Assembly: GCA_963734535.1 (NCBI GenBank)
Contig: CAVTHS010000004.1
Coordinates: 150,820 to 214,819 of the forward strand
DNA from: an uncultured Chloroflexia bacterium
GTDB taxonomy: Bacteria; Chloroflexota; Limnocylindria; Limnocylindrales; CSP1-4
Reading direction: 5' to 3'
Length of the DNA: 64,000 nucleotides
Below are positions 3,789 to 36,113 of the stretch, piece by piece. The translations under genes and the position numbers were made by a program. The stretch's first letter is position 1. Each line of letters starts with the position of its first letter. A model generated the notes under the pieces. That model did no database searches. It saw only the letters and a program-made list of their open reading frames with translations, and had not been told where the DNA came from.

Positions 3789-4586
3789 CACGTCGCCTCG
3801 CGGATCTCGCGGCGGCCATCCTCGGCCGTCTCGATCGCGTCGGCCCCGAGCTCGCTGGCAATTCCCCCAGCGACAGCCCGCACCCGTTCGCCGAAGTACT
3901 CGAGCCGATCGTGGATCCGGAAGTGGGGCCCCGCGATGCTGATGGCGCCGACCGGCCTGCCGTCGGCTCCGATGATCGCCGCTCCCACGCACGCACCGAA
4001 CGGCTCGTTCTCGCGGTCATCGGTGGAGTAGCCGCGGCACTCCGTCCGCCGGATCTCCTCCCGGAACGTGGCCAGGTCACAGATCGTCCGATCCGTCCGG
4101 GGCAGAAAATCCATGCGTGCGTAGATCCGTTCGCGCTCCACGCCGGGGAGCGCGGCGAGCATGGCCTTGCCCAACGACGTGGAGTGAAGCGGCATCGTCT
4201 GGCCGACCGCGGAGACCAGCTGGATGCTGTTCTCGGCCTCCAGCTTGTCCACGTAGATGATTTGGAGGTCCTCGATCACCCCAAGGTGCACGGTCTCCCC
4301 GAGCTCATCGCGAAGGGCTGTGAGGTGCGGGCGCGCAATGCTCCGGAGATCCAGGCCAATCGTGACGCGGTGGGCCAGCCACAGGATCTTGCCGCTGAGG
4401 CGATAGCGCCGCGTCGACTCGTTCTGGGTCACGTACCCGGCCTCGACGAGCGTCCGAAGGAGGCGTGTCACGGTGGCCTTGTCGAGGCCCAGCCTGCTGG
4501 CCGATTGCCGATGGGCCGAGCCCGTACCCGTCTCCGCGCGCCAGCGTCTCCATGACATCGAGGCCGCGACTGAGGGTCCGAGTCAC
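3788..4586 (-). CDS. IclR-family transcriptional regulator; frameshift near 4495
   Basis: TLSRGLDVMETL..GPSAIGQQAG / LDKATVTRLLRTL HTH; ETVHLG, PLHSTSLGKAMLA effector domain. Confidence 0.9.
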
Positions 4587-4842: not shown

Positions 4843-6165
4843 GTGAACGCTTGGGATGTGGTGTTGGGCACGCTCGCCGAAGAGGCGCGATTGCGACTTC
4901 AGCGGCTCCGGAGTCTCCTCGAGGCTAAGGAGTACTTCGACGTGGGCGCGAGCGCGCGCTTCAGGGCCGTCCACCGTCGCGTGACCTGGCAGGCGAGCAG
5001 GGCCGCGATGTTGGTCATCGGATTCGGGGCGCCGCTTCACGTCGTTGTTCTCACGATCCTCCATCCGTCCGCATTCGTCCCGATCGCGATGGTCGACACT
5101 GTGCTCGCTGCGGCGGCAGCGCTCGGTTGGTGGTGCCTTGGTGGTGTACTGCGACACTGGCCCGAGCCCGTCGCTTTCGTCATGAGCCTGGCAGTCGGGG
5201 CAGCGGCGATGCTCCTGGCGGTCTCTGGTCCTCACCTCGTCGCACTGGCGGTCGGATACCTGCTCTTCATCCCGCCGGTCGTAGCGCTCGTCGTCCCATG
5301 GCGCAGCCAGGCGGAGGTTCGCTGGCTGGCCGTCTACGGGGCTGCCGTCATGGTCTTCCTCGCGACCGTCGCCCCGGATGGCTGGCCTGCCGCCGCCGAG
5401 CGACGCGACCTGGTCGTCGCGCTGCTGGTGTCGCTGGCGGCGGCCTTCACCGGCCACGCGCTGGTGTTCCGGCGCCAGGTGCGCAGCTTCGCGCAGGTCC
5501 AGGCCCTCGGAAGGCTTCAGCGCCGTGAAACGCGCCAGTGGGCCGAGCTCCAGCGGGTCCACAGCTCGCTGGAGGTTATCGCTCGCACCGACGATCTGAC
5601 GGGCACCGGCAACCGCAAGAAGCTCGACGAGGATCTCAGAATCGCCCGCGGTCGTCTTGCCCGCACAGGTGGCCGCTTCGGGCTCCTGGAGATCGACCTT
5701 GATCACTTCAAGGCGATCAACGACACCTTCGGTCATGTTGCCGGTGACGAGATCCTTCGGCGGGTCTCCAGCGCCCTGCGCGACGCCGTTCGCAGCGACG
5801 ATGCCGTGTATCGCTTCGGTGGGGAGGAGTTTCTCGTTCTCCTTGGCAACGTGTCGGGCGGTGTTCTCAGCGCAGGTGAACGGGTCCGCGAGGCCGTCGA
5901 GGACCTGGGCCTGCTCCATCCTGCGAACGCGCCGTTCGAGCACGTGACGGTCAGTGTCGGCGCGTCCTTGATCAGTCGGGCCGACCTCGCTGCGAGCAAT
6001 GACGAGTGGTTCAGTCGCGTCGACGTCGCGCTGTACCAGGCGAAAGCCGATGGGCGCAACCGTGTCGCCGTCGCGCAGCCAACCGCGGCGATCGTCGAGG
6101 TCCGCACGCTCCGGGCGAATGCGGCGCCTGTCCCCAGGGTCCCGTCCCTCCAGTACCTCCCGTAG
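4843..6165 (+). CDS. Membrane-bound diguanylate cyclase (GGDEF)
   Basis: Several hydrophobic helices, then TDDLTG..NR, DLDHFKAINDTFGH, RFGGEEF, ALYQAKADGRNRV; RxxD I-site (RSDD); start codon uncertain. Confidence 0.92.
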   Translation: MNAWDVVLGTLAEEARLRLQRLRSLLEAKEYFDVGASARFRAVHRRVTWQASRAAMLVIGFGAPLHVVVLTILHPSAFVPIAMVDTVLAAAAALGWWCLGGVLRHWPEPVAFVMSLAVGAAAMLLAVSGPHLVALAVGYLLFIPPVVALVVPWRSQAEVRWLAVYGAAVMVFLATVAPDGWPAAAERRDLVVALLVSLAAAFTGHALVFRRQVRSFAQVQALGRLQRRETRQWAELQRVHSSLEVIARTDDLTGTGNRKKLDEDLRIARGRLARTGGRFGLLEIDLDHFKAINDTFGHVAGDEILRRVSSALRDAVRSDDAVYRFGGEEFLVLLGNVSGGVLSAGERVREAVEDLGLLHPANAPFEHVTVSVGASLISRADLAASNDEWFSRVDVALYQAKADGRNRVAVAQPTAAIVEVRTLRANAAPVPRVPSLQYLP

Positions 6166-29110: not shown

Positions 29111-30586
29111 TCAGGCGTTGCGTGCCTCGGGTGTTCGTCCGACGCCCGCCGTCGGCGGGCGTCGCGGCCCCGCGATCCAGAGCGCCACGGACCAGAGGCC
29201 AAGGGCGGCGAGGACCACCGGGATCAGCGCGACATAGGAGCCGGTCGTGTCGAAGGCGATCGCGCCCACGTAGACGGCCAGCGTGCCGCCGACCGGGTAG
29301 GCGACCCCCAGGAGCCCGAAGATCGACCCGAAGTTGGGCCCGCCGAATACGTCGCCGAAGGCCGCCGACCGGACCGCGATGGTCGCGCCGGTCCCAACGC
29401 CGTGCAGGAGCACCCCCGCGATCGCGAGCCCCGGCGCCGAGGCGACGAGCCCGAGCGCCGCGATGACCCCGCCGGCCACGGCGACGGCCGCCACGACGCC
29501 AACGACCCGGCGCCCGATCCGATCGGAGAGCCCTCCGCCGACGATCTGCCCGCCGACGTAGGCGAGTGACTGGAGGCCGAGCGCCGCGGCCGCCCACTCC
29601 GCGCCGAGGCCGCTCCTGATGGCGCCCGGGATGAACGCCTGGAGGACGCCCTCGTCGAATACGCCGATCGCGGCGGCCCCGGTGAAGAGGAGCCAGAAGC
29701 GCCGCGTGCGGACCACGCGCCGCACGCTGTGCGCGTGCTCGCTGCTGCCGAGCGGCGGGACCTCGAGGGCGGCCGCGACGGCGCCGGGGCCCGAGGTCTC
29801 GTGGAGGCCCGACGCGCGGGCCGCGATGCCGGCCTCCAGCGCAAGCGTCGTCGGCCGGCCGGCGCTCACGGGCTCGCCGAGGACACGTGACGGTCGCTCG
29901 ACCGCGTCCGGCCGTGGCGCCACTCGCGGGGCGGCGCCCCGCACGTCGGACGGCGCCAGGGTGCGGCGGCGCTCGGCGCGGCGAGCCGGGACCACGATCG
30001 CCGGGCCGCTGGTCATGAGCCACACGAACGCCACGCCCACCAGGCAGGTCGCAAGGAAGACGAGCGACGCCGAGCGCCAGCCCGCCGTCTGGATCAGCCC
30101 GCCGGCGATGGGCAGCGCGATCGCGACCCCGATCCCGGGCCCGGCATAGGCGATCCCCAGCGCGAGGCCCGACATCCCCGCATAGCGCCGCGCGATCGCG
30201 GTGGATGTCCCGATGAACGACAGCTGCAGCCCGAGCGCCATGAAGACCGCGTACGCCAGGATCACGAGGGAGATGTCGCGCGCGAGGTAGACGGCCAGCC
30301 AGCCCGCGGCGAGCAGCACCATGGACGCGGTCAGGAGGTCGCGGTCGGCCCATTCGTCGTATGCGCGGCCCAGGAGCGGGCTGGCGACTGCCGTCACGAC
30401 GAGGAACATGGTCCAGGGCGTGACGGCGAGCGTCCGGCTGATCCCGAACTCCTGCGCGAACGCGACGGAGATGGCCGGGAACGTGTACAGGCCGCCGTAC
30501 GCGATCGCGCCGACCGTGAACGCCCCGGCGAGCGGAAGCGATAGCCGGGTCGCGCGTTTCGCGATTGGGAGGGCCACGGCGGTCAT
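29111..30586 (-). CDS. MFS transporter (OFA/MCT-like)
   Basis: About 12 TM helices; GRAYDEW, GLALGIAYAG.GIG, GGLSDRIGRR, DVFGGPNFGSIFG. Confidence 0.9.
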   Translation of the reverse strand: MTAVALPIAKRATRLSLPLAGAFTVGAIAYGGLYTFPAISVAFAQEFGISRTLAVTPWTMFLVVTAVASPLLGRAYDEWADRDLLTASMVLLAAGWLAVYLARDISLVILAYAVFMALGLQLSFIGTSTAIARRYAGMSGLALGIAYAGPGIGVAIALPIAGGLIQTAGWRSASLVFLATCLVGVAFVWLMTSGPAIVVPARRAERRRTLAPSDVRGAAPRVAPRPDAVERPSRVLGEPVSAGRPTTLALEAGIAARASGLHETSGPGAVAAALEVPPLGSSEHAHSVRRVVRTRRFWLLFTGAAAIGVFDEGVLQAFIPGAIRSGLGAEWAAAALGLQSLAYVGGQIVGGGLSDRIGRRVVGVVAAVAVAGGVIAALGLVASAPGLAIAGVLLHGVGTGATIAVRSAAFGDVFGGPNFGSIFGLLGVAYPVGGTLAVYVGAIAFDTTGSYVALIPVVLAALGLWSVALWIAGPRRPPTAGVGRTPEARNA

Positions 30587-30724: not shown

Positions 30725-31325
30725 ATGGTCGGGTTCTTCGACAACGCGTACCGCGACGGCGGAACGCCGACGTGGGACGTCGGGCGGCCGCAGGGTGCGG
30801 TCGTGCGCCTCGCACGGACGGGTCTCGTCACGGGGTCCGTCCTCGACGCGGGCTGCGGGACCGGCGAGAACGCGCTCCATCTCGCCGAGCTCGGGCACGC
30901 GGTGCTGGGCGTGGACTTCGCGGTCGCGGCGATCGAACGCGCCGCCGCGAAGGCCGCCGGACCGCGGCCTGCCCGTCGAGTTCCGCGTCGCGGACGCGCT
31001 CGATCTCGCCGCGCTCGAGAGGACGTTCGACACGGTCCTCGACGTCGGGCTCTTCCACACGTTCGAGGATGCCGAGCGCACCCGGTACGCCGCGAGCCTC
31101 GCGGGCGCGCTCCGACCGGGCGGGCGGGCCTTCCTGCTCTGCTGGAGCGACCGCAACCCGTTCGGGCGCGGCCCGCGGCGGATCTCGCGGCGGGAGATCC
31201 GGGAGACATTCCGCGAGGGGTGGCAGGTGGAGGCGATCGACCCCGAGTGGCTCGACACGCGCCTCCCGGACGGTCGCATCCACGCCTGGCTGGCGCGGAT
31301 CACCCGGGTCGGCGCCGGGACGTAG
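30725..31325 (+). CDS. Class I SAM-dependent methyltransferase; frameshift near 30960
   Basis: PTWDVGRPQ, VLDAGCGTGENA; continues as FDTVLDVGLFHTF, LRPGG in another frame. Confidence 0.88.
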
Positions 31326-31417
31326 GGCGCTGATACGGGCGCAGGGCGCGGGGCGGGGGCGGGCCGGCGTCCGGGGAGCGACCCCCGGTGCGGCACACAC
31401 TCCTCGCTAATGCCTCG

Positions 31418-31607
31418 CCCCTGATCACTAACCGGGACGAGTGGACCCCCGCGCCGCCCGGGACACGCGCTGAGCCGACAGTGGCCGGTGATTCCGTCGC
31501 TTGTGCGTCGCGGGCGCAGCATTCGCGAGGGTCCGGAAGCCCGAAACGGGCTCCCGGGGCCTACGAGGGCGACCAGCGATGGCCCCGTTCTGGTTAGTGA
31601 TCTGGGG
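31418..31607. mobile_element. Putative MITE-like element with 22-bp imperfect terminal inverted repeats
   Basis: CCCCTGATCACTAACCGGGACG (31418-31439) versus the reverse complement of 31586-31607, CCCCAGATCACTAACCAGAACG: 19/22 match; intergenic, no convincing ORF. Confidence 0.55.
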
Positions 31608-31727
31608 GCCATCAACACCGAGGATCCCCGCCCGGGACGGACGGTCGGCTCGAACCCGGGCGCGCACGTCGCGACCCGCGGCGACGCCGGCCCGGGACAC
31701 GTCATGGCACGCTCGCGGCAGGCCGGG

Positions 31728-31733
31728 TATGCT
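31728..31733 (+). promoter_or_regulatory. -10 box TATGCT for a leaderless transcript of the cys operon
   Basis: 6 nt upstream of GTG at 31740, the same spacing as other leaderless genes in the window. Confidence 0.7.
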
Positions 31734-31739
31734 CCCGCC

Positions 31740-31826
31740 GTGAACCAGCCCGAATTGCAGATCGGACCCCGCTGCTCCTGTCGCCGGCGAGTACCGGTGC
31801 AGGGTGCGCGAGCGGTCGGCTGCTGA
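31740..31826 (+). CDS. Putative Cys-containing leader peptide (28 aa)
   Basis: MNQPELQIGPRCSCRRRVPVQGARAVGC*; leaderless; directly upstream of DUF4395-cysE-cysK. Confidence 0.7.
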   Translation: MNQPELQIGPRCSCRRRVPVQGARAVGC

Positions 31827-31916
31827 TCGACCGGCACCCACACCGGGGCTCGCGACTCCTCGCGACGTACGAGCGGCGCTTCATGTCGCCGCTCACCGGC
31901 CCGCGTCCCCCGGAGG
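31787..31916 (+). promoter_or_regulatory. Putative attenuator RNA with alternative helices
   Basis: Hairpin 31787-31853 competes with helix 31843-31854/31902-31913, which overlaps the GGAGG SD at 31912-31916. Confidence 0.6.
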
Positions 31917-31926
31917 TTCCCGTCTC

Positions 31927-32440
31927 GTGTCCAGCATCCTCACCCCACCAGCCCGCCAGGTCGATCCGCGCGGCCAGCGCTTCGGCGCAGGCGTCTCGGC
32001 GGTCGTCCTGGTCGTCGCGCTCTGGCTCACCATGCCCTGGCTCGCCGTGCTCGTCGGCTTCAATCTCGGCGTCTCGGCCGCGTTCGGAACGCGTCTCTTC
32101 CTGCCCGGCCGCCTGTGGCCGGTGATCCGGCGAACGCTCCGGCTTCGCCCGGCGGCGCTCGAGCACGAGTACCCGCCCCGCTTCGCACAGGCCCTGGGCG
32201 CCACGGTCATCGGGCTCGGCGCGATCGCCTTCGTGGCTGGGGCGACGCTGCTCGGCCTGGCTCCTCGTGGGCGCCGTTGCCGGCCTCCAGGTCCTGCTCG
32301 CATCCACCGGGATCTGCGTCGGCTGCCGCCTCTACGTCCTCCGCTGGTGGGTGCCCGCCCAGTTCGCACGCCTCTTCCGACGAGCCGATCGGCTCGTCGG
32401 TCCAACCGTCGGCCCGCCGATCAGCTATCGCGATCGATAG
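31927..32440 (+). CDS. DUF4395-family membrane protein; frameshift near 32260
   Basis: [31 protein letters not shown]. Confidence 0.85.
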
Positions 32441-32468
32441 GCCGGCCGAACACCCAGGAGTCGACGCC

Positions 32469-33317
32469 ATGAGCCCGCCCCACGATCGCGACCATGCCTT
32501 CGCTGCGACCCTCGCCGATGAGCGACGCGAAGGCGACCGGGGATTCCCGCTCAAGCGCGACGTCGCGGTCTTCGTCGACGAGCTGCTGGGGATCCTCTTC
32601 GGGCAGCTCTCCGAGGGCGCGGCCGGCACGGCCGACGAGCTGCAGGCGCGGCTCACGCTGGCCGTGCGCGATCTTCGCCGGCTGGTCGCGCCCCTCGCCG
32701 AGGCGGGCGCGGCCAGCCGGATCGTGGACGCCTTCGCTGACGCGCTGCCGGACATCCACGACCGGCTCGGGCAGGACGCCCAGGCCATCGCCGACGGCGA
32801 CCCCGCCGCCGAGAGCCTGGACGAGGTGATCGCGGCCTACCCCGGCTTTCTCGCGATCGCCATCCATCGGATCGCCCACGAGCTGTGCGGGCTGGGCGTC
32901 CCGATCCTGCCGCGGCTCCTCGCCGAGGTGGCCCACACGCGGACCGGGATCGACATCCACCCCGGGGCGACGATCGGCCGGTCGTTCTGCATCGATCACG
33001 GCACCGGAATCGTGATCGGCGAGACGGCGGTGATCGGCAACGACGTCAAGCTCTACCAGGGCGTCACGCTGGGCGCGCTCTCCGTCGCGAAGAGCGCCGC
33101 CGGCACGAAGCGCCACCCGACCATCGAGGACCGCGCGGTCCTCTACGCCAACGCGACGGTCCTCGGCGGCGACACCGTCATCGGCCACGACAGCGTGGTC
33201 GGCGGGAACGTGTTCCTGACCGCGAGCCTCCCGCCCGATTCCGTCGTCTACCAGTCCAGCCAGGTCCGCGTCCGTCGCGTCCGCGACGGGTTCGAGGACT
33301 CCGACTTCGTCATCTGA
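32469..33317 (+). CDS. cysE: Serine O-acetyltransferase
   Basis: [46 protein letters not shown]. Confidence 0.95.
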
Positions 33318-33330
33318 AGGAGACCGCTCG

Positions 33331-34245
33331 ATGAAGGCCGATTCCATCCTCGCCACGATCGGCGAGACACCCCACCTGCGGATCAACCGTCTCTTCGACC
33401 CCCGCGTCGAGGTGTGGGCGAAGCTCGAGCGGGCCAACCCGGGCGGCAGCATCAAGGACCGGATCGCGCTCTCGATGATCGAGGACGCCGAGGCCCGCGG
33501 GATCATTGGTCCGGGCTCGGTGGTCATCGAACCGACGTCGGGCAACACCGGCATCGGCCTCGCGCTCGTGTGTGCCGTCAAGGGCTACCGGCTCATCCTG
33601 ACCATGCCCGAGTCGATGTCGATCGAACGTCGCAAGCTGATGACCGGCTACGGCGCGGAGCTGGAGCTGACGCCGCGGGAGCTCGGCATGAATGGCTCGA
33701 TCGCGCGCGCCAGGGAGCTGGCGGCCGAGATCCCGGGCGCCTGGATCCCGATGCAGTTCGAGAACCCCGCGAACGTCGAGGCACATCGGCGCACGACGGC
33801 GGCCGAGATCCTGCGCGACTTCCCGGAGGGCCTGGACTACATCGTCACCGGCGTCGGGACCGGCGGTCACATCACGGGCGTCGCCGAGGTGCTGAAGCCG
33901 CTCTGGCCGAAGCTCCGCGTGTTCGCCGTGGAGCCGACCCTCTCGCCGGTGCTCTCGGGCGGCACCCACAGCCCGCACTCGATCCAGGGGATCGGCGCCG
34001 GGTTCATCCCGGCGGTGATGCGAACGGACCTCCTCGACGGGATCCTCCAGGTTGCACCGGAGGACGCGATGACCTACGCACGCCGCGCCGCCCGCGAAGA
34101 GGGTCTCCTCATCGGCGTTTCGTCCGGGGCCTCGCTGGCGGCCGTCGCGCAGCTCCTCCCGCAGGTCGCGGATGGCGCGACGATCCTCACGTTCTCCTAC
34201 GACACCGGCGAGCGCTACCTCTCGGTCGACGCGCTCTGGGGCTGA
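33331..34245 (+). CDS. cysK: Cysteine synthase A
   Basis: [43 protein letters not shown]. Confidence 0.97.
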
Positions 34246-34286: not shown

Positions 34287-36113
34287 TCAGGGTCCTCCTT
34301 CGGGCCGGCCGGGCCGTCCTCCGGGCCGGCGTCCGGCGAGGCCAGCCGCGTCCTCCCAGTCGAGCCACGGGACGTCGTGCCCGGCGAGGTACGCCTTGAC
34401 GGCCGTCCCCACGGTCGGGTGGAAGGACGTGTCGCCGAGGCGCTGGTAGACCCCGTAGCCCCGGAGCCGGTCCTTGACGTGCCCCTTCATCTCGGCGAAA
34501 TGGAGCTCGATGCCGGCCAGCGCCAGGTCGGTGATCAGCTCATCGAGTGCGTCCGCGGCCGTCGTATCGACGTCGGTCACCGGCTCGGCACAGACGACCA
34601 GCCAGCGAACCGGCGGCTGCACTCCGCGGACCACCGCCCGCGCCCGGATCCGGAACAGGTCCGCGTTGGCGAAGAACAGCGGCGCGTCCCACCGGTAGAG
34701 GAGGAGGCCGGGCACCTGGAGCGCGTCCGGGTGTCGTTCGATATCGTGATAGCCCTTGTAGTTGCGCACCCGTCCCAGGATCGCTTCGTGCGGCCGCCAG
34801 GCATGCCGGATGAATTCCAGGAGCGAGAGCCCCACGGCGATCCCGATCCCGGGCAGGACTCCAAAGAGGACGACGCCAAGGAAGCTGACCATCGACAGTC
34901 CGAACTCCGAGCGGCGAAGGCGCAGGAGGCGTCGCGCACCCGCGAGATCGAACAGGCCGAGCGCCGCGGCGATCACGATCGCCGCGAGCGCCGTCGATGG
35001 GAGGTTGGTGAGCAGCCCTGGCTCCACCACCAGCAGGAGGACGACGACGCCCGCGCCCACCAGTCCGGTCACCTGCGTCCTTGCGCCGGCCGCCTCCGCG
35101 ACCGGGGTCCGCGTGGCGCTGCTGCTGACCGGGAATCCGCCGATGAGCGCGCCTGCGACGTTCGCGACTCCCAACGCAACGAGCTCATGGTCCGGATCGA
35201 CGGAGTCGCCGCGGCGGGCGGCGAACGTCCGGGAGATGACGCTCGTGTCGGTGAACGCGATGAGGGCAATCCCGAACGCACCCGGGACCAGGGCGAGAAG
35301 GTCGGCCAGGCTGACGGCGGGGACCCCCGTGGCGGCGAAGCCGCGCGGGACCGCGCCGACCACGGCCAGCTGGTTCGCGAGCCCGAGGAACGTCACCGCG
35401 AGGGTGGCCAGGATGACCGCGATGAGGATCCCCGGGAGGCCCCGCGAGACGCGGCGCAGCACCAACGTCACGACGAGCGCGCCGCCCCCGATCAGCAGTG
35501 CGACGGGCACCGCCCGGCCGTCGACGACTCCCCGGACAATCCCGATCGAGTCCCCCAGGAAGTCGGACCCGGAGACCGAGAAGCCCAGCAGCTTCGGGAC
35601 CTGGCTCACGATGACGGTCAGGGCGATCCCGTTCATGTAGCCGAGGCGGACCGGCCGAGAGAGCAGGTCGGTCAGGAAGCCGAGGCGCGCCGAGGCCGCC
35701 GCCATGCAGATCGCGCCCACCATGAGCGCCAGCGCCGCGGCCAGGGCAACCGAGCGACCGACATCGCCGCCGGCGAGCGGGACGATCGTCGCCGCGATAG
35801 GCGCGATGAGCGCCGAATCCGGGCCGAGCACGAGGATCCGCGACGGCCCAACGAGGAAGTACGCGACGAGGGGCCCGACCGTGGCGTACAAGCCGGTGAT
35901 CGCCGGGAGGCCGGCCGCCTGTGCGTACGCCATTCCGGCCGGGACCAGGAGTGCCGACAGGACGATCCCGGCGACCAGGTCCGCGCGGAACGAGGCGAGC
36001 CCATAGCCGCGGAGGGCCGTGAGGATGGGAAAGGCACGCATCGCGGCGCTCCGCGGATCGCGCGGCGGGCGCGTCTCCGGCGGCGAGTGGACCTCGGGCG
36101 GATCGACCGACAC
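34287..36113 (-). CDS. SulP-family anion (sulfate) permease with STAS domain
   Basis: ADLVAG, PAGMAYAQAAGLP..GLY, ELVALGVAN, GARTQ, APLFFANA. Confidence 0.95.
   Translation of the reverse strand: MSVDPPEVHSPPETRPPRDPRSAAMRAFPILTALRGYGLASFRADLVAGIVLSALLVPAGMAYAQAAGLPAITGLYATVGPLVAYFLVGPSRILVLGPDSALIAPIAATIVPLAGGDVGRSVALAAALALMVGAICMAAASARLGFLTDLLSRPVRLGYMNGIALTVIVSQVPKLLGFSVSGSDFLGDSIGIVRGVVDGRAVPVALLIGGGALVVTLVLRRVSRGLPGILIAVILATLAVTFLGLANQLAVVGAVPRGFAATGVPAVSLADLLALVPGAFGIALIAFTDTSVISRTFAARRGDSVDPDHELVALGVANVAGALIGGFPVSSSATRTPVAEAAGARTQVTGLVGAGVVVLLLVVEPGLLTNLPSTALAAIVIAAALGLFDLAGARRLLRLRRSEFGLSMVSFLGVVLFGVLPGIGIAVGLSLLEFIRHAWRPHEAILGRVRNYKGYHDIERHPDALQVPGLLLYRWDAPLFFANADLFRIRARAVVRGVQPPVRWLVVCAEPVTDVDTTAADALDELITDLALAGIELHFAEMKGHVKDRLRGYGVYQRLGDTSFHPTVGTAVKAYLAGHDVPWLDWEDAAGLAGRRPGGRPGRPEGGP

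Follow-up and report, generated by a model that had tools for sequence, protein, structure and literature searches.

What is a 28-codon reading frame with three Cys codons doing directly ahead of a DUF4395 gene that is itself followed by cysE and cysK? This arrangement occupies positions 31,728 to 34,245 of the stretch of DNA studied here (the window: 64,000 nucleotides (nt) of contig CAVTHS010000004.1, assembly GCA_963734535.1, from an uncultured Chloroflexia bacterium). We conclude that the short open reading frame (sORF) and the RNA that follows it probably form a translational attenuator, which reads the supply of Cys-tRNA and is in its ON state while a ribosome pauses on the Cys codons. 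The evidence that carries this reading is the conservation of the Cys codons in relatives, together with two mutually exclusive helices that co-vary. The features on which the argument opens are the following, all coordinates being positions in the window.

31728 to 31733, forward strand: -10-like hexamer TATGCT (a TANNNT motif), 6 nt before the GTG of the sORF.
31740 to 31826, forward strand: leader sORF of 28 codons plus stop, its GTG start the presumed 5' end of the mRNA; homologues of 24-36 codons lie in 72 of 80 related loci.
31773 to 31781, forward strand: sensor codons UGC-UCC-UGU (Cys12-Ser13-Cys14), which contain a CUCC tetramer complementary to the Shine-Dalgarno (SD) sequence (anti-SD).
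31927 to 32440, forward strand: DUF4395 gene, the proposed regulated gene (Pfam PF14340, 2.4e-15), with a GTG start confirmed by homologues.

The hexamer, the GTG, the 28-codon frame and its Cys codons had been named in an earlier reading of this DNA (the original prediction), and all could be read directly in the sequence, with Cys codons at 31773-75, 31779-81 and 31821-23 and the stop at 31824-26. The frame is also, as described there, the tail of a longer one, being the 3' end of a 112-amino-acid frame at 31488-31826. That longer frame has no Pfam match, and we rejected it as a conserved gene: several relatives have an in-frame stop just 5' of the sORF, with stop-to-stop segments of 31-37 amino acids.

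Conservation was assessed on relatives of the DUF4395 protein, of which 1081 had E ≤ 0.001 among 1168 candidates, with identity up to 91%. An alignment of 31 DUF4395 relatives (A1) was used as query against the GTDB species genomes; 377 stretches matched, 340 of them encoding DUF4395 relatives, and the locus counts given here refer to the best 80 of these 340. These 80 loci come throughout from metagenome-assembled genomes of Chloroflexota, many of them Candidatus (Ca.) Limnocylindrales, an order of the class Ca. Limnocylindria. The supposition that the element belongs to a phylum other than that of the mycobacteria was therefore right. The closest locus, L003, encodes CysE and CysK proteins 97% and 96% identical to those of the window. 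Each locus was anchored at the DUF4395 start, and the 260-300 nt 5' of the anchor were translated.

A sORF with a Cys-x-Cys motif was found in 72 of the 80 loci. Seventy of these and the window make up the 71 leaders of the main analysis; the other two are L013 and L067, the latter set aside for a spurious pattern match, and L063, L074 and L075 were excluded since the pattern had matched polycysteine tracts. A polycysteine version of the sORF is present in five further loci (L024, L063, L072, L074 and L075), giving 77 of 80, and only L015, L037 and L041 showed no Cys sORF. Conservation of the frame and its Cys codons in relatives, the test set beforehand for the prediction, was thus what we found. 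In nearly all loci the encoded core reads C-x-C-(R/P/L/I)-(R/W)-R. Across the 71 leaders the sORF measures 24-36 codons, mostly 28-30, and starts 11-13 codons ahead of Cys-x-Cys. The polycysteine sORFs are 25-48 amino acids long, lie ~160-320 nt 5' of the DUF4395 start, and carry a run of 2-4 Cys, after which four loci have RRRPR and L024 has RQRPR; their TANNNT stands 10 nt 5' of the ATG and their spacer is ~160-190 nt. These loci carry the consecutive Cys codons that define the mycobacterial family. When the 71 leaders were aligned with MAFFT (alignment A2), three conserved blocks emerged: the Cys codons with the next ~18 nt, which form a palindromic CCGG-type repeat; a segment denoted S3; and the SD context CCCGGAG.

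The start of the sORF looks like that of a leaderless message. A TANNNT hexamer lies 6-10 nt 5' of the sORF ATG or GTG in 69 of the 71 leaders (6 nt in 34, 7 nt in 29, 9 nt in 4 and 10 nt in 2) and is lacking in two. Within 80 nt 5' of Cys-x-Cys, combinations of TANNNT, six or seven nucleotides and RTG were in frame with the Cys codons 63 times and out of frame not once. The spacing is favoured beyond this gene: over the 80 loci and the window, TANNNT and RTG are separated by six nucleotides in 90 cases and by seven in 71, against 13-43 for other spacings, and for starts that open reading frames of at least 150 codons the corresponding figures are 36, 24 and 1-14. In the window itself, 9 of 11 such sites open frames of at least 100 codons, for example at 30577 (reverse strand, MFS) and 29057 (reverse strand). 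Leaderless mRNAs may therefore be common in Limnocylindria, as far as such motif counts can tell. Judged from its -10 hexamer, the mRNA probably has its 5' end at GTG 31740 or a few nucleotides from it; neither a sigma-70 consensus promoter nor an intrinsic terminator was found in 31200-32100.

Both codons of Cys-x-Cys are kept in 71 of 71 leaders, the first as UGC in 60 and UGU in 11, the second as UGU in every one. Between them stand seven different codons (UCC 56, AUC 7, ACG 2, ACA 2, GCC 2, AUG 1, CUC 1), and wherever that codon encodes Ser it is UCC (56/56). The number of Cys codons per sORF is two in 12 leaders, three in 51, four in 7 and five in 1, with consecutive Cys codons in 18 of the 71, as well as in L013, L067 and the five polycysteine loci. 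The prediction had described the sensor as Cys-x-Cys plus a terminal Cys; the first part holds generally, and the terminal Cys codon occurs only in the small clade to which the window belongs. Of 210 Cys codons in the sORFs, 129 are UGU, compared with 77 of 588 in 208 long reading frames of the same loci, rich in G and C at third codon positions (13% of the Cys codons of those long frames); the third base of the second Cys codon falls in no helix tested. The invariant UGU may be selected for slow decoding or for another pairing.

Such constancy would also suit a metabolite- or protein-binding, riboswitch-like RNA element, in which Cys-x-Cys-Arg-Arg-Arg is readable by chance and translation is irrelevant. 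Indeed the 27-nt core hardly varies, synonymous positions included (always UGU, UCC for all 56 Ser, a rare CGA) and holds both the palindromic repeat and conserved helices. We nevertheless regard this explanation as improbable, because so much in the leader is organized by codons: the start with its TANNNT at leaderless spacing keeps the reading frame in the 63:0 ratio given above, its distance to Cys-x-Cys varies by whole codons (11-13), the codon between the Cys codons varies freely while both Cys codons are retained, and the polycysteine variants retain Cys codons and not the nucleotide core. Rfam likewise offers no family for it: release 15 had no match in the whole window at the gathering score, and on 31200-32100 a search with E up to 10 returned two chance-level matches only (E > 5).

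If the sORF is translated, does its product matter as a protein? In the N-terminal part, substitutions at codon positions 1, 2 and 3 number 56, 95 and 92, and nearest-neighbour comparison gives 129 nonsynonymous to 62 synonymous changes; in the tail the figures are 43, 73 and 26, and 97 to 13. Scans of five sORF peptides against Pfam and NCBIfam with E up to 10 gave no match. By these sequence comparisons the product is not conserved as a protein outside its core, the pattern of a leader peptide in which regulatory codons and RNA matter. A functional small Cys peptide, for instance a metal- or sulfur-binding partner of DUF4395, with helices serving mRNA stability or translational coupling, is for that reason highly improbable in our judgement. 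Its support is that the core C-x-C-(R/P)-R-R-x-P is conserved as amino acids in 72 loci and that the sORF consistently accompanies DUF4395, not cysE or cysK. Against this, outside the core second codon positions are hit as often as third ones (N-terminal part) or more often (tail), nonsynonymous changes exceed synonymous ones in both parts, the peptide families differ almost entirely from clade to clade, no known small-protein family matches, and those residues past Cys-x-Cys that are conserved coincide with the arms of helix A and of the local hairpin described below.

The second half of the argument concerns the RNA, in which the following features are at issue.

31787 to 31853, forward strand: helix A (anti-sequestrator), a long hairpin with its 5' arm in the sORF and the sORF stop in its loop.
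31843 to 31854, forward strand: switch segment S3, which serves helix A as 3' arm and helix B as 5' arm (anti-SD); columns 138-150 of A2.
31902 to 31916, forward strand: 3' arm of helix B with the SD sequence GGAGG (31912-31916), read in the sequence and complementary to S3.
31871 to 31894, forward strand: GC-rich hairpin enclosed by helix B (-16.9 kcal/mol, z = -4.8).
31782 to 31799, forward strand: local hairpin H with palindromic CCGG-type arms, competing with the 5' arm of helix A (-10.6 kcal/mol, z = -2.2).
31764 to 31771, forward strand: anti-SD stretch particular to the window, in the sORF immediately 5' of its Cys codons, with a predicted pairing to 31911-31920.

Helix A was present as the prediction had drawn it. 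Folded alone, 31785-31855 gives exactly this hairpin (31787-91/31849-53, 31794-99/31841-46, 31802-07/31834-39 and 31813-18/31828-33) at -46.4 kcal/mol (z = -5.24), and 0 of 200 shuffled sequences were as stable. Its loop in the window holds the last Cys codon and the stop. From the 71 leaders RNAalifold predicts one helix only, and this is the base of helix A, GCGAG:CUCGC plus CC:GG. Over 11 core pairs, 89.2% of cells are paired, compared with 25-48% when the partner is slid; changes on both sides affect 5 pairs, a number reached by 1 of 500 shuffles, and 16 cells, reached by none of 500. Such changes are seen in L033 (A-U to G-C) and in L070 and L079 (C-G to U-A). In single-sequence minimum free energy (MFE) structures, 57 of 67 leaders have the GCGAG:CUCGC base (median z -1.95), and in 66 of 68 the loop contains the sORF stop. 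The distance from the first base of the first Cys codon to the start of the helix is 14 nt, and this geometry is invariant.

Helix B, the enclosed 8-bp hairpin and the overlap with GGAGG were likewise found where the prediction had placed them. Helix B pairs 31843-48 with 31908-13 and 31851-54 with 31902-05, and so masks the first two G of GGAGG, which lies ten bases ahead of the DUF4395 GTG at 31927. The common segment 31843-31854 means that helices A and B exclude each other, as had been claimed. The enclosed hairpin (31871-78/31887-94) shows a compensatory change from G-C to A-U in L004, and the helix B region alone folds to -37.0 kcal/mol (z = -1.86), with 8 of 200 shuffles as stable. S3 lies ~27 nt past the sORF stop; its consensus, CUCCGGG then CCUCGC, is the reverse complement of the SD context. 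Over seven columns S3 and SD are paired in 79.6% of cells, and 12 cells have changed on both sides (0/500 shuffles). The mean duplex energy is -18.06 kcal/mol for cognate and -15.83 kcal/mol for non-cognate combinations, the cognate being better in 50 of 68 leaders once the three without a recognised S3 pattern are omitted. In 52 of 67 leaders the best duplex includes every one of the four SD bases. The base before GGAG and the base after CUCC are C and G in 35 cases, U and A in 8 and other in 15 (n = 58, nine leaders without CUCC in S3, the window among them, being omitted). Compensatory changes therefore occur in both helices of the prediction, which had proposed covariation in relatives as a check.

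The two-helix scheme proved sound as far as it went, and it had missed two elements, a second anti-SD within the sORF and the local hairpin H. In the full-leader MFE of the window, helix A forms and the SD pairs with 31764-71 (P ~0.65), its pairing with S3 having P ~0.18; the stretch 31764-71, on this predicted pairing, would fall within the footprint of a ribosome with its A site on Cys12 or Cys14. Among 67 distinct leaders, S3 is the predicted partner of the SD with a mean of 0.48 and dominates in 34, while the 5' part of the sORF has a mean of 0.28 and dominates in 23; the commonest 5' partner is the CUCC of the UGC-UCC codons (+2 to +5). Pairing of that CUCC with the SD would explain why UCC is never synonymously varied. 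Duplexes of the sORF 5' anti-SD with the SD gave no co-variation signal (cognate -9.48, non-cognate -9.46). Hairpin H is paired in 92% of cells over 70 distinct leaders, and nearly all changes in it are one-sided, to wobble pairs; with just one cell changed on both sides, covariation is uninformative here and the hairpin is possible but not proven. An outer stem between the Cys-codon region and the 3' tail of the sORF was also considered and dropped, its cognate and non-cognate duplexes being equal (-11.23 and -11.29). One relative, L052 (3764-4006), carries a unit of ~25 nt, repeated in tandem about three times, in the interval from the mid hairpin to the SD, which brings its spacer to 141 nt.

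From these elements we propose the following mechanism. The mRNA would start at or near GTG 31740, and ribosomes would translate the 28-codon leader, whose only conserved coding features appear to be Cys-x-Cys and the Arg codons that come after it. Two anti-SDs would mask the SD of DUF4395: S3, through helix B, and a stretch in or beside the Cys codons, which would be the CUCC of UGC-UCC-UGU in most relatives and 31764-71 in the window. Helix A would tie S3 to the sORF sequence that begins 14 nt past the first Cys codon. When Cys-tRNA is scarce, a ribosome would wait with a Cys codon in its A site, covering the sORF anti-SD and also the 5' arm of the local hairpin. With the first Cys codon in the A site it would reach up to helix A and leave it intact; with the second Cys codon there, it would melt part of the helix base, and the CCGG pairs holding S3 would stay. 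S3 would thus be locked in helix A and the SD left free, the ON state. When Cys is plentiful, ribosomes would run through the 5' arm of helix A to the stop in its loop, S3 would be released to pair with the SD as helix B, and the freed 5' arm would fold into the local hairpin, the OFF state. That the sORF is translated, that ribosomes stall at its two or three Cys codons, and which way and how strongly DUF4395 responds are parts of this scheme that we infer from sequence and modelling.

The central step, that stalling at the Cys codons frees the SD, was modelled in 70 leaders by forcing 27 nt under a ribosome to be unpaired (A site -15 to +11) and reading out the cost of opening GGAG. Without a ribosome the median cost was 6.34 kcal/mol; it fell to 5.03 when the first Cys codon occupied the A site, was 5.0-5.2 at -3 to +1 and 4.82 at +3, and rose to ~7.0 kcal/mol at +8 to +13. 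A ribosome at the Cys codon made the SD cheaper to open in 87% of leaders (Wilcoxon p = 3e-10). The scan thus predicts the SD to be most accessible where the prediction had the ribosome stall. States A and B come out near iso-energetic, with a median difference of 1.28 kcal/mol (interquartile range -1.9 to 5.7).

Several observations weigh against this account, and the first come from the same folding models. The modelled effect is modest, 1.3-2 kcal/mol; the SD remains largely paired even when a ribosome occupies the Cys codons (~5 kcal/mol to open) and still costs 5.39 kcal/mol to open with helix A enforced; and neither helix dominates the modelled ensemble, A costing 4.7 and B 3.4 kcal/mol. 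Equilibrium folding is a weak guide for RNA this GC-rich, and co-translational kinetics lie outside the model. The whole leader, 31740-31960, is no stabler than its shuffles (z = -0.10), so that the case for something beyond chance rests on helix A, the hairpin and above all conservation. Helix B is weaker than helix A, with a median z of -1.1 for its region; two-sided changes affect only 4 S3:SD pairs, where shuffles give 2.7 (94/500 have as many), and the U/A cases all belong to a single peptide group and may stand for few events. In the coding part, the window's sORF has Cys12-Ser13-Cys14 and a terminal Cys without any consecutive Cys codons, the hallmark by which the mycobacterial sORFs are recognised, and two to three Arg codons after Cys-x-Cys are as conserved as the Cys codons. 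In the gene context, neither cysE nor cysK is present in the examined flank of 61 of 80 loci, four of which span <1.5 kb of downstream sequence, where absence cannot be judged. DUF4395 has no assigned function, and the cysteine logic therefore rests on gene association. Finally, the DUF4395 gene is interrupted in the window, by one extra C at ~32256 relative to L003.

The Arg codons deserve a closer look, since they could mean that the leader senses arginine, or general translation speed, through invariant Arg codons including the rare CGA (454 of 7012 Arg codons in the 208 long frames). Their conservation is explained by structure: the Arg codons are part of the local hairpin and supply the 5' arm of helix A. 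Moreover, a ribosome paused at +4 to +6 would be expected to melt helix A and so favour OFF, the gene context is one of sulfur and cysteine, and the polycysteine variants multiply Cys and not Arg codons. We give arginine sensing next to no probability in spite of its run of two to three well-kept Arg codons.

Masking of the SD need not be the only output. The same sensor might act by premature Rho-dependent termination, instead of or besides SD masking: release at the stop would expose a C-rich tract for Rho loading, and a ribosome at the Cys codons would let helix A pair that tract. The composition fits, C being 0.48 and G 0.27 over ~95 nt past the sORF stop compared with 0.34 and 0.38 inside the sORF, as does the lack of any intrinsic terminator in 31200-32100; and Rho-dependent termination was proposed for actinobacterial Cys leader peptides by Seliverstov et al. 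2005 (PMC1262725). The tract is short, however, and lies mostly inside structured segments, and the Rho model has no need of the specific complementarity and co-variation between S3 and the SD. Termination by Rho, the foremost alternative or added output, is in our view rather unlikely, and masking of the SD, relieved by a ribosome waiting at the Cys codons, is the output that we retain.

Which genes would be controlled? The prediction had proposed the whole DUF4395-cysE-cysK group, the last two genes of which are the following.

32469 to 33317, forward strand: cysE-like serine acetyltransferase (Hexapep and SATase_N matches).
33331 to 34245, forward strand: cysK-like cysteine synthase dependent on pyridoxal phosphate (PALP, 9.1e-72).

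Across the relatives this proposal holds for DUF4395 and needs correction for cysE and cysK. The two genes lie 3' of DUF4395 in only 17 of 80 loci; in two more, cysE is 5' and cysK 3' of it, so that both are present in 19. Other next genes are unrelated (EamA, Fur, FtsH, ABC transporters etc., among 65 reading frames scanned in 20 loci). In four polycysteine loci scanned, a ThiF-rhodanese (MoeZ-like) gene follows DUF4395 in L063, L072 and L074 and not in L024. Judged by these neighbourhoods, the conserved unit is the sORF with DUF4395, and because the next genes vary across loci, the regulated unit is DUF4395 itself. Cysteine responsiveness would then be a property suggested by the Cys codons and the company of sulfur genes. 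The AlphaFold model of DUF4395 is a helical membrane protein (predicted local distance difference test score 79.7); a PDB fold search with it gave no match at E ≤ 0.001, the best being 0.87, and the literature on DUF4395 yielded passing mentions of the name only, nothing informative.

The interruption of DUF4395 in the window has a counterpart nearby: the methyltransferase frame at 30725-31325 also has one extra C, at 30957, relative to the near-identical L003, and the reading frame 32267-32440 holds the C-terminal part of DUF4395. Two extra-C events within 1.3 kb may point to homopolymer errors of a long-read assembly rather than to pseudogenes. In L003 the methyltransferase stands ~1.6 kb further from the leader than in the window. 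Between the methyltransferase and the -10 hexamer, 31326-31727 (~400 nt) contains no recognisable gene or RNA family, and the 40 nt directly 5' of the hexamer are conserved inside the window's own clade.

A regulon could not be shown from the window, because it contains no other TANNNT-led Cys sORF and no further copy of the core except a chance match with one mismatch at 5423; the locus flanks examined held no extra copies either. A SulP-family sulfate permease with a STAS domain (34287-36113, reverse strand) converges on cysK, and is also found in L002 and L003; no TANNNT-type Cys sORF lies ahead of it within the window. The three loci without a Cys sORF differ in setting. In L015 and L037 the DUF4395 gene (at 3998 and 4004) stands directly behind another coding region and is followed by metallo-beta-lactamase and rhodanese domains, a setting that suggests the handling of sulfide or persulfide. 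In L041 it is the DUF4395 gene that carries the leaderless signature, TACCAT, 7 nt and ATG.

How does this leader compare with known attenuators? In the trp and his leaders of enterobacteria, a leader peptide contains regulatory codons, helices 1:2, 2:3 and 3:4 are exclusive, and the position of the leading ribosome decides among them. The present leader shares with them a peptide with regulatory codons, exclusive helices and a stop inside the structured region; it differs in that the last helix masks an SD and forms no terminator, that the leader is leaderless and not SD-led, and that it has two or three regulatory codons. It also resembles the ermC and cat leaders, in which a ribosome stalled in the leader frame rearranges hairpins and frees a downstream SD; there stalling is caused by an antibiotic and the nascent peptide, according to the Discussion of 10.1101/834739, whereas the presumed cause here is a lack of charged tRNA.

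The closest parallels are mycobacterial. Canestrari et al. 2020 (10.1101/834739) report experiments on leaderless mycobacterial sORFs with at least two consecutive Cys codons, surveyed in 41 mycobacteria only. The name DUF4395, which the prediction had connected with a mycobacterial attenuator, is absent from the main text of that preprint. In Ms5788A the Cys tract pairs with the SD, and this masking is relieved by stalled ribosomes (10.1101/834739); Rv2334A sits 5' of cysK1-cysE (10.1101/834739). A 2026 Nucleic Acids Research paper (PMC13096801) names Rv2334A, Rv0815A, Rv0485A and Rv2391A as Cys attenuators of Mycobacterium tuberculosis (see also Shell et al. 2015, PMC4633059). As described in these sources, the mycobacterial polycysteine sORFs are like ours in being unannotated short frames at a presumed leaderless start with Cys codons as sensor, in lying 5' of cysteine or sulfur genes (here DUF4395-cysE-cysK), and in their proposed output, masking of the SD by the leader and its relief by a ribosome at the Cys codons. 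The dimensions are similar too, 90 nt plus 97 nt to the gene for Ms5788A and 87 nt plus 100 nt in the window. They differ in phylum, Actinomycetota against Chloroflexota, and the Chloroflexota element is known from sequence alone. Unlike the C-terminal Cys run of the mycobacterial sORFs, Cys-x-Cys here lies mid-frame, without consecutive Cys codons in the window and in 53 of the 71 leaders; and in place of a single long duplex, the main anti-SD would lie outside the sORF, governed by helix A, in a design of three or four segments.

Cys leader peptides had earlier been predicted in Mycobacterium, Propionibacterium and Bifidobacterium by Seliverstov et al. 2005 (PMC1262725). Those too are short frames with Cys codons, 5' of cys or cbs genes, found by conservation alone and without an intrinsic terminator. 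They are reported to have Cys runs near the stop, with no conserved hairpins found, whereas the helices are the most conserved part of the present leader. Full-text literature searches, with most subscription journals outside their coverage, found no description of such attenuators in Chloroflexota. What is new relative to the mycobacterial attenuators is the other phylum, the three-part RNA design and Cys-x-Cys instead of consecutive Cys.

These observations admit a broader reading, which we advance tentatively and hold to be somewhat less than evenly probable: that the Cys-codon sORF and DUF4395 are an old, self-contained 'cysteine-hunger' module of Chloroflexota that works as a double lock. 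The phylum would thereby gain its first described amino-acid attenuator of the ribosome-mediated kind and its first family of regulatory leaderless uORFs (upstream open reading frames). On that tentative reading, one anti-SD would lie under the stalled ribosome and the other would be held by the anti-sequestrator, and Cys-x-Cys with the rare UGU would suffice. DUF4395 would then be marked as needed when cysteine is scarce, for example in sulfur acquisition; and should the gene after mycobacterial Ms5788A also prove to be a DUF4395 gene, the module would be common to two phyla.

To our knowledge, leaderless-sORF amino-acid attenuators have been demonstrated only in mycobacteria. If the present interpretation is true, attenuators of this type would extend to an abundant uncultured soil lineage of another phylum, and the leaders suggest that two non-adjacent Cys codons can suffice given the right RNA geometry. 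They offer a compact, conserved three-helix design in 77 natural variants for studying how ribosome position is converted into access to an SD, and they add in-silico evidence that leaderless mRNAs are common in Limnocylindria. For DUF4395 itself the leader may provide the first regulatory clue, suggesting by sequence and association a protein that shares its regulation with cysteine or sulfur supply and is probably required for it.

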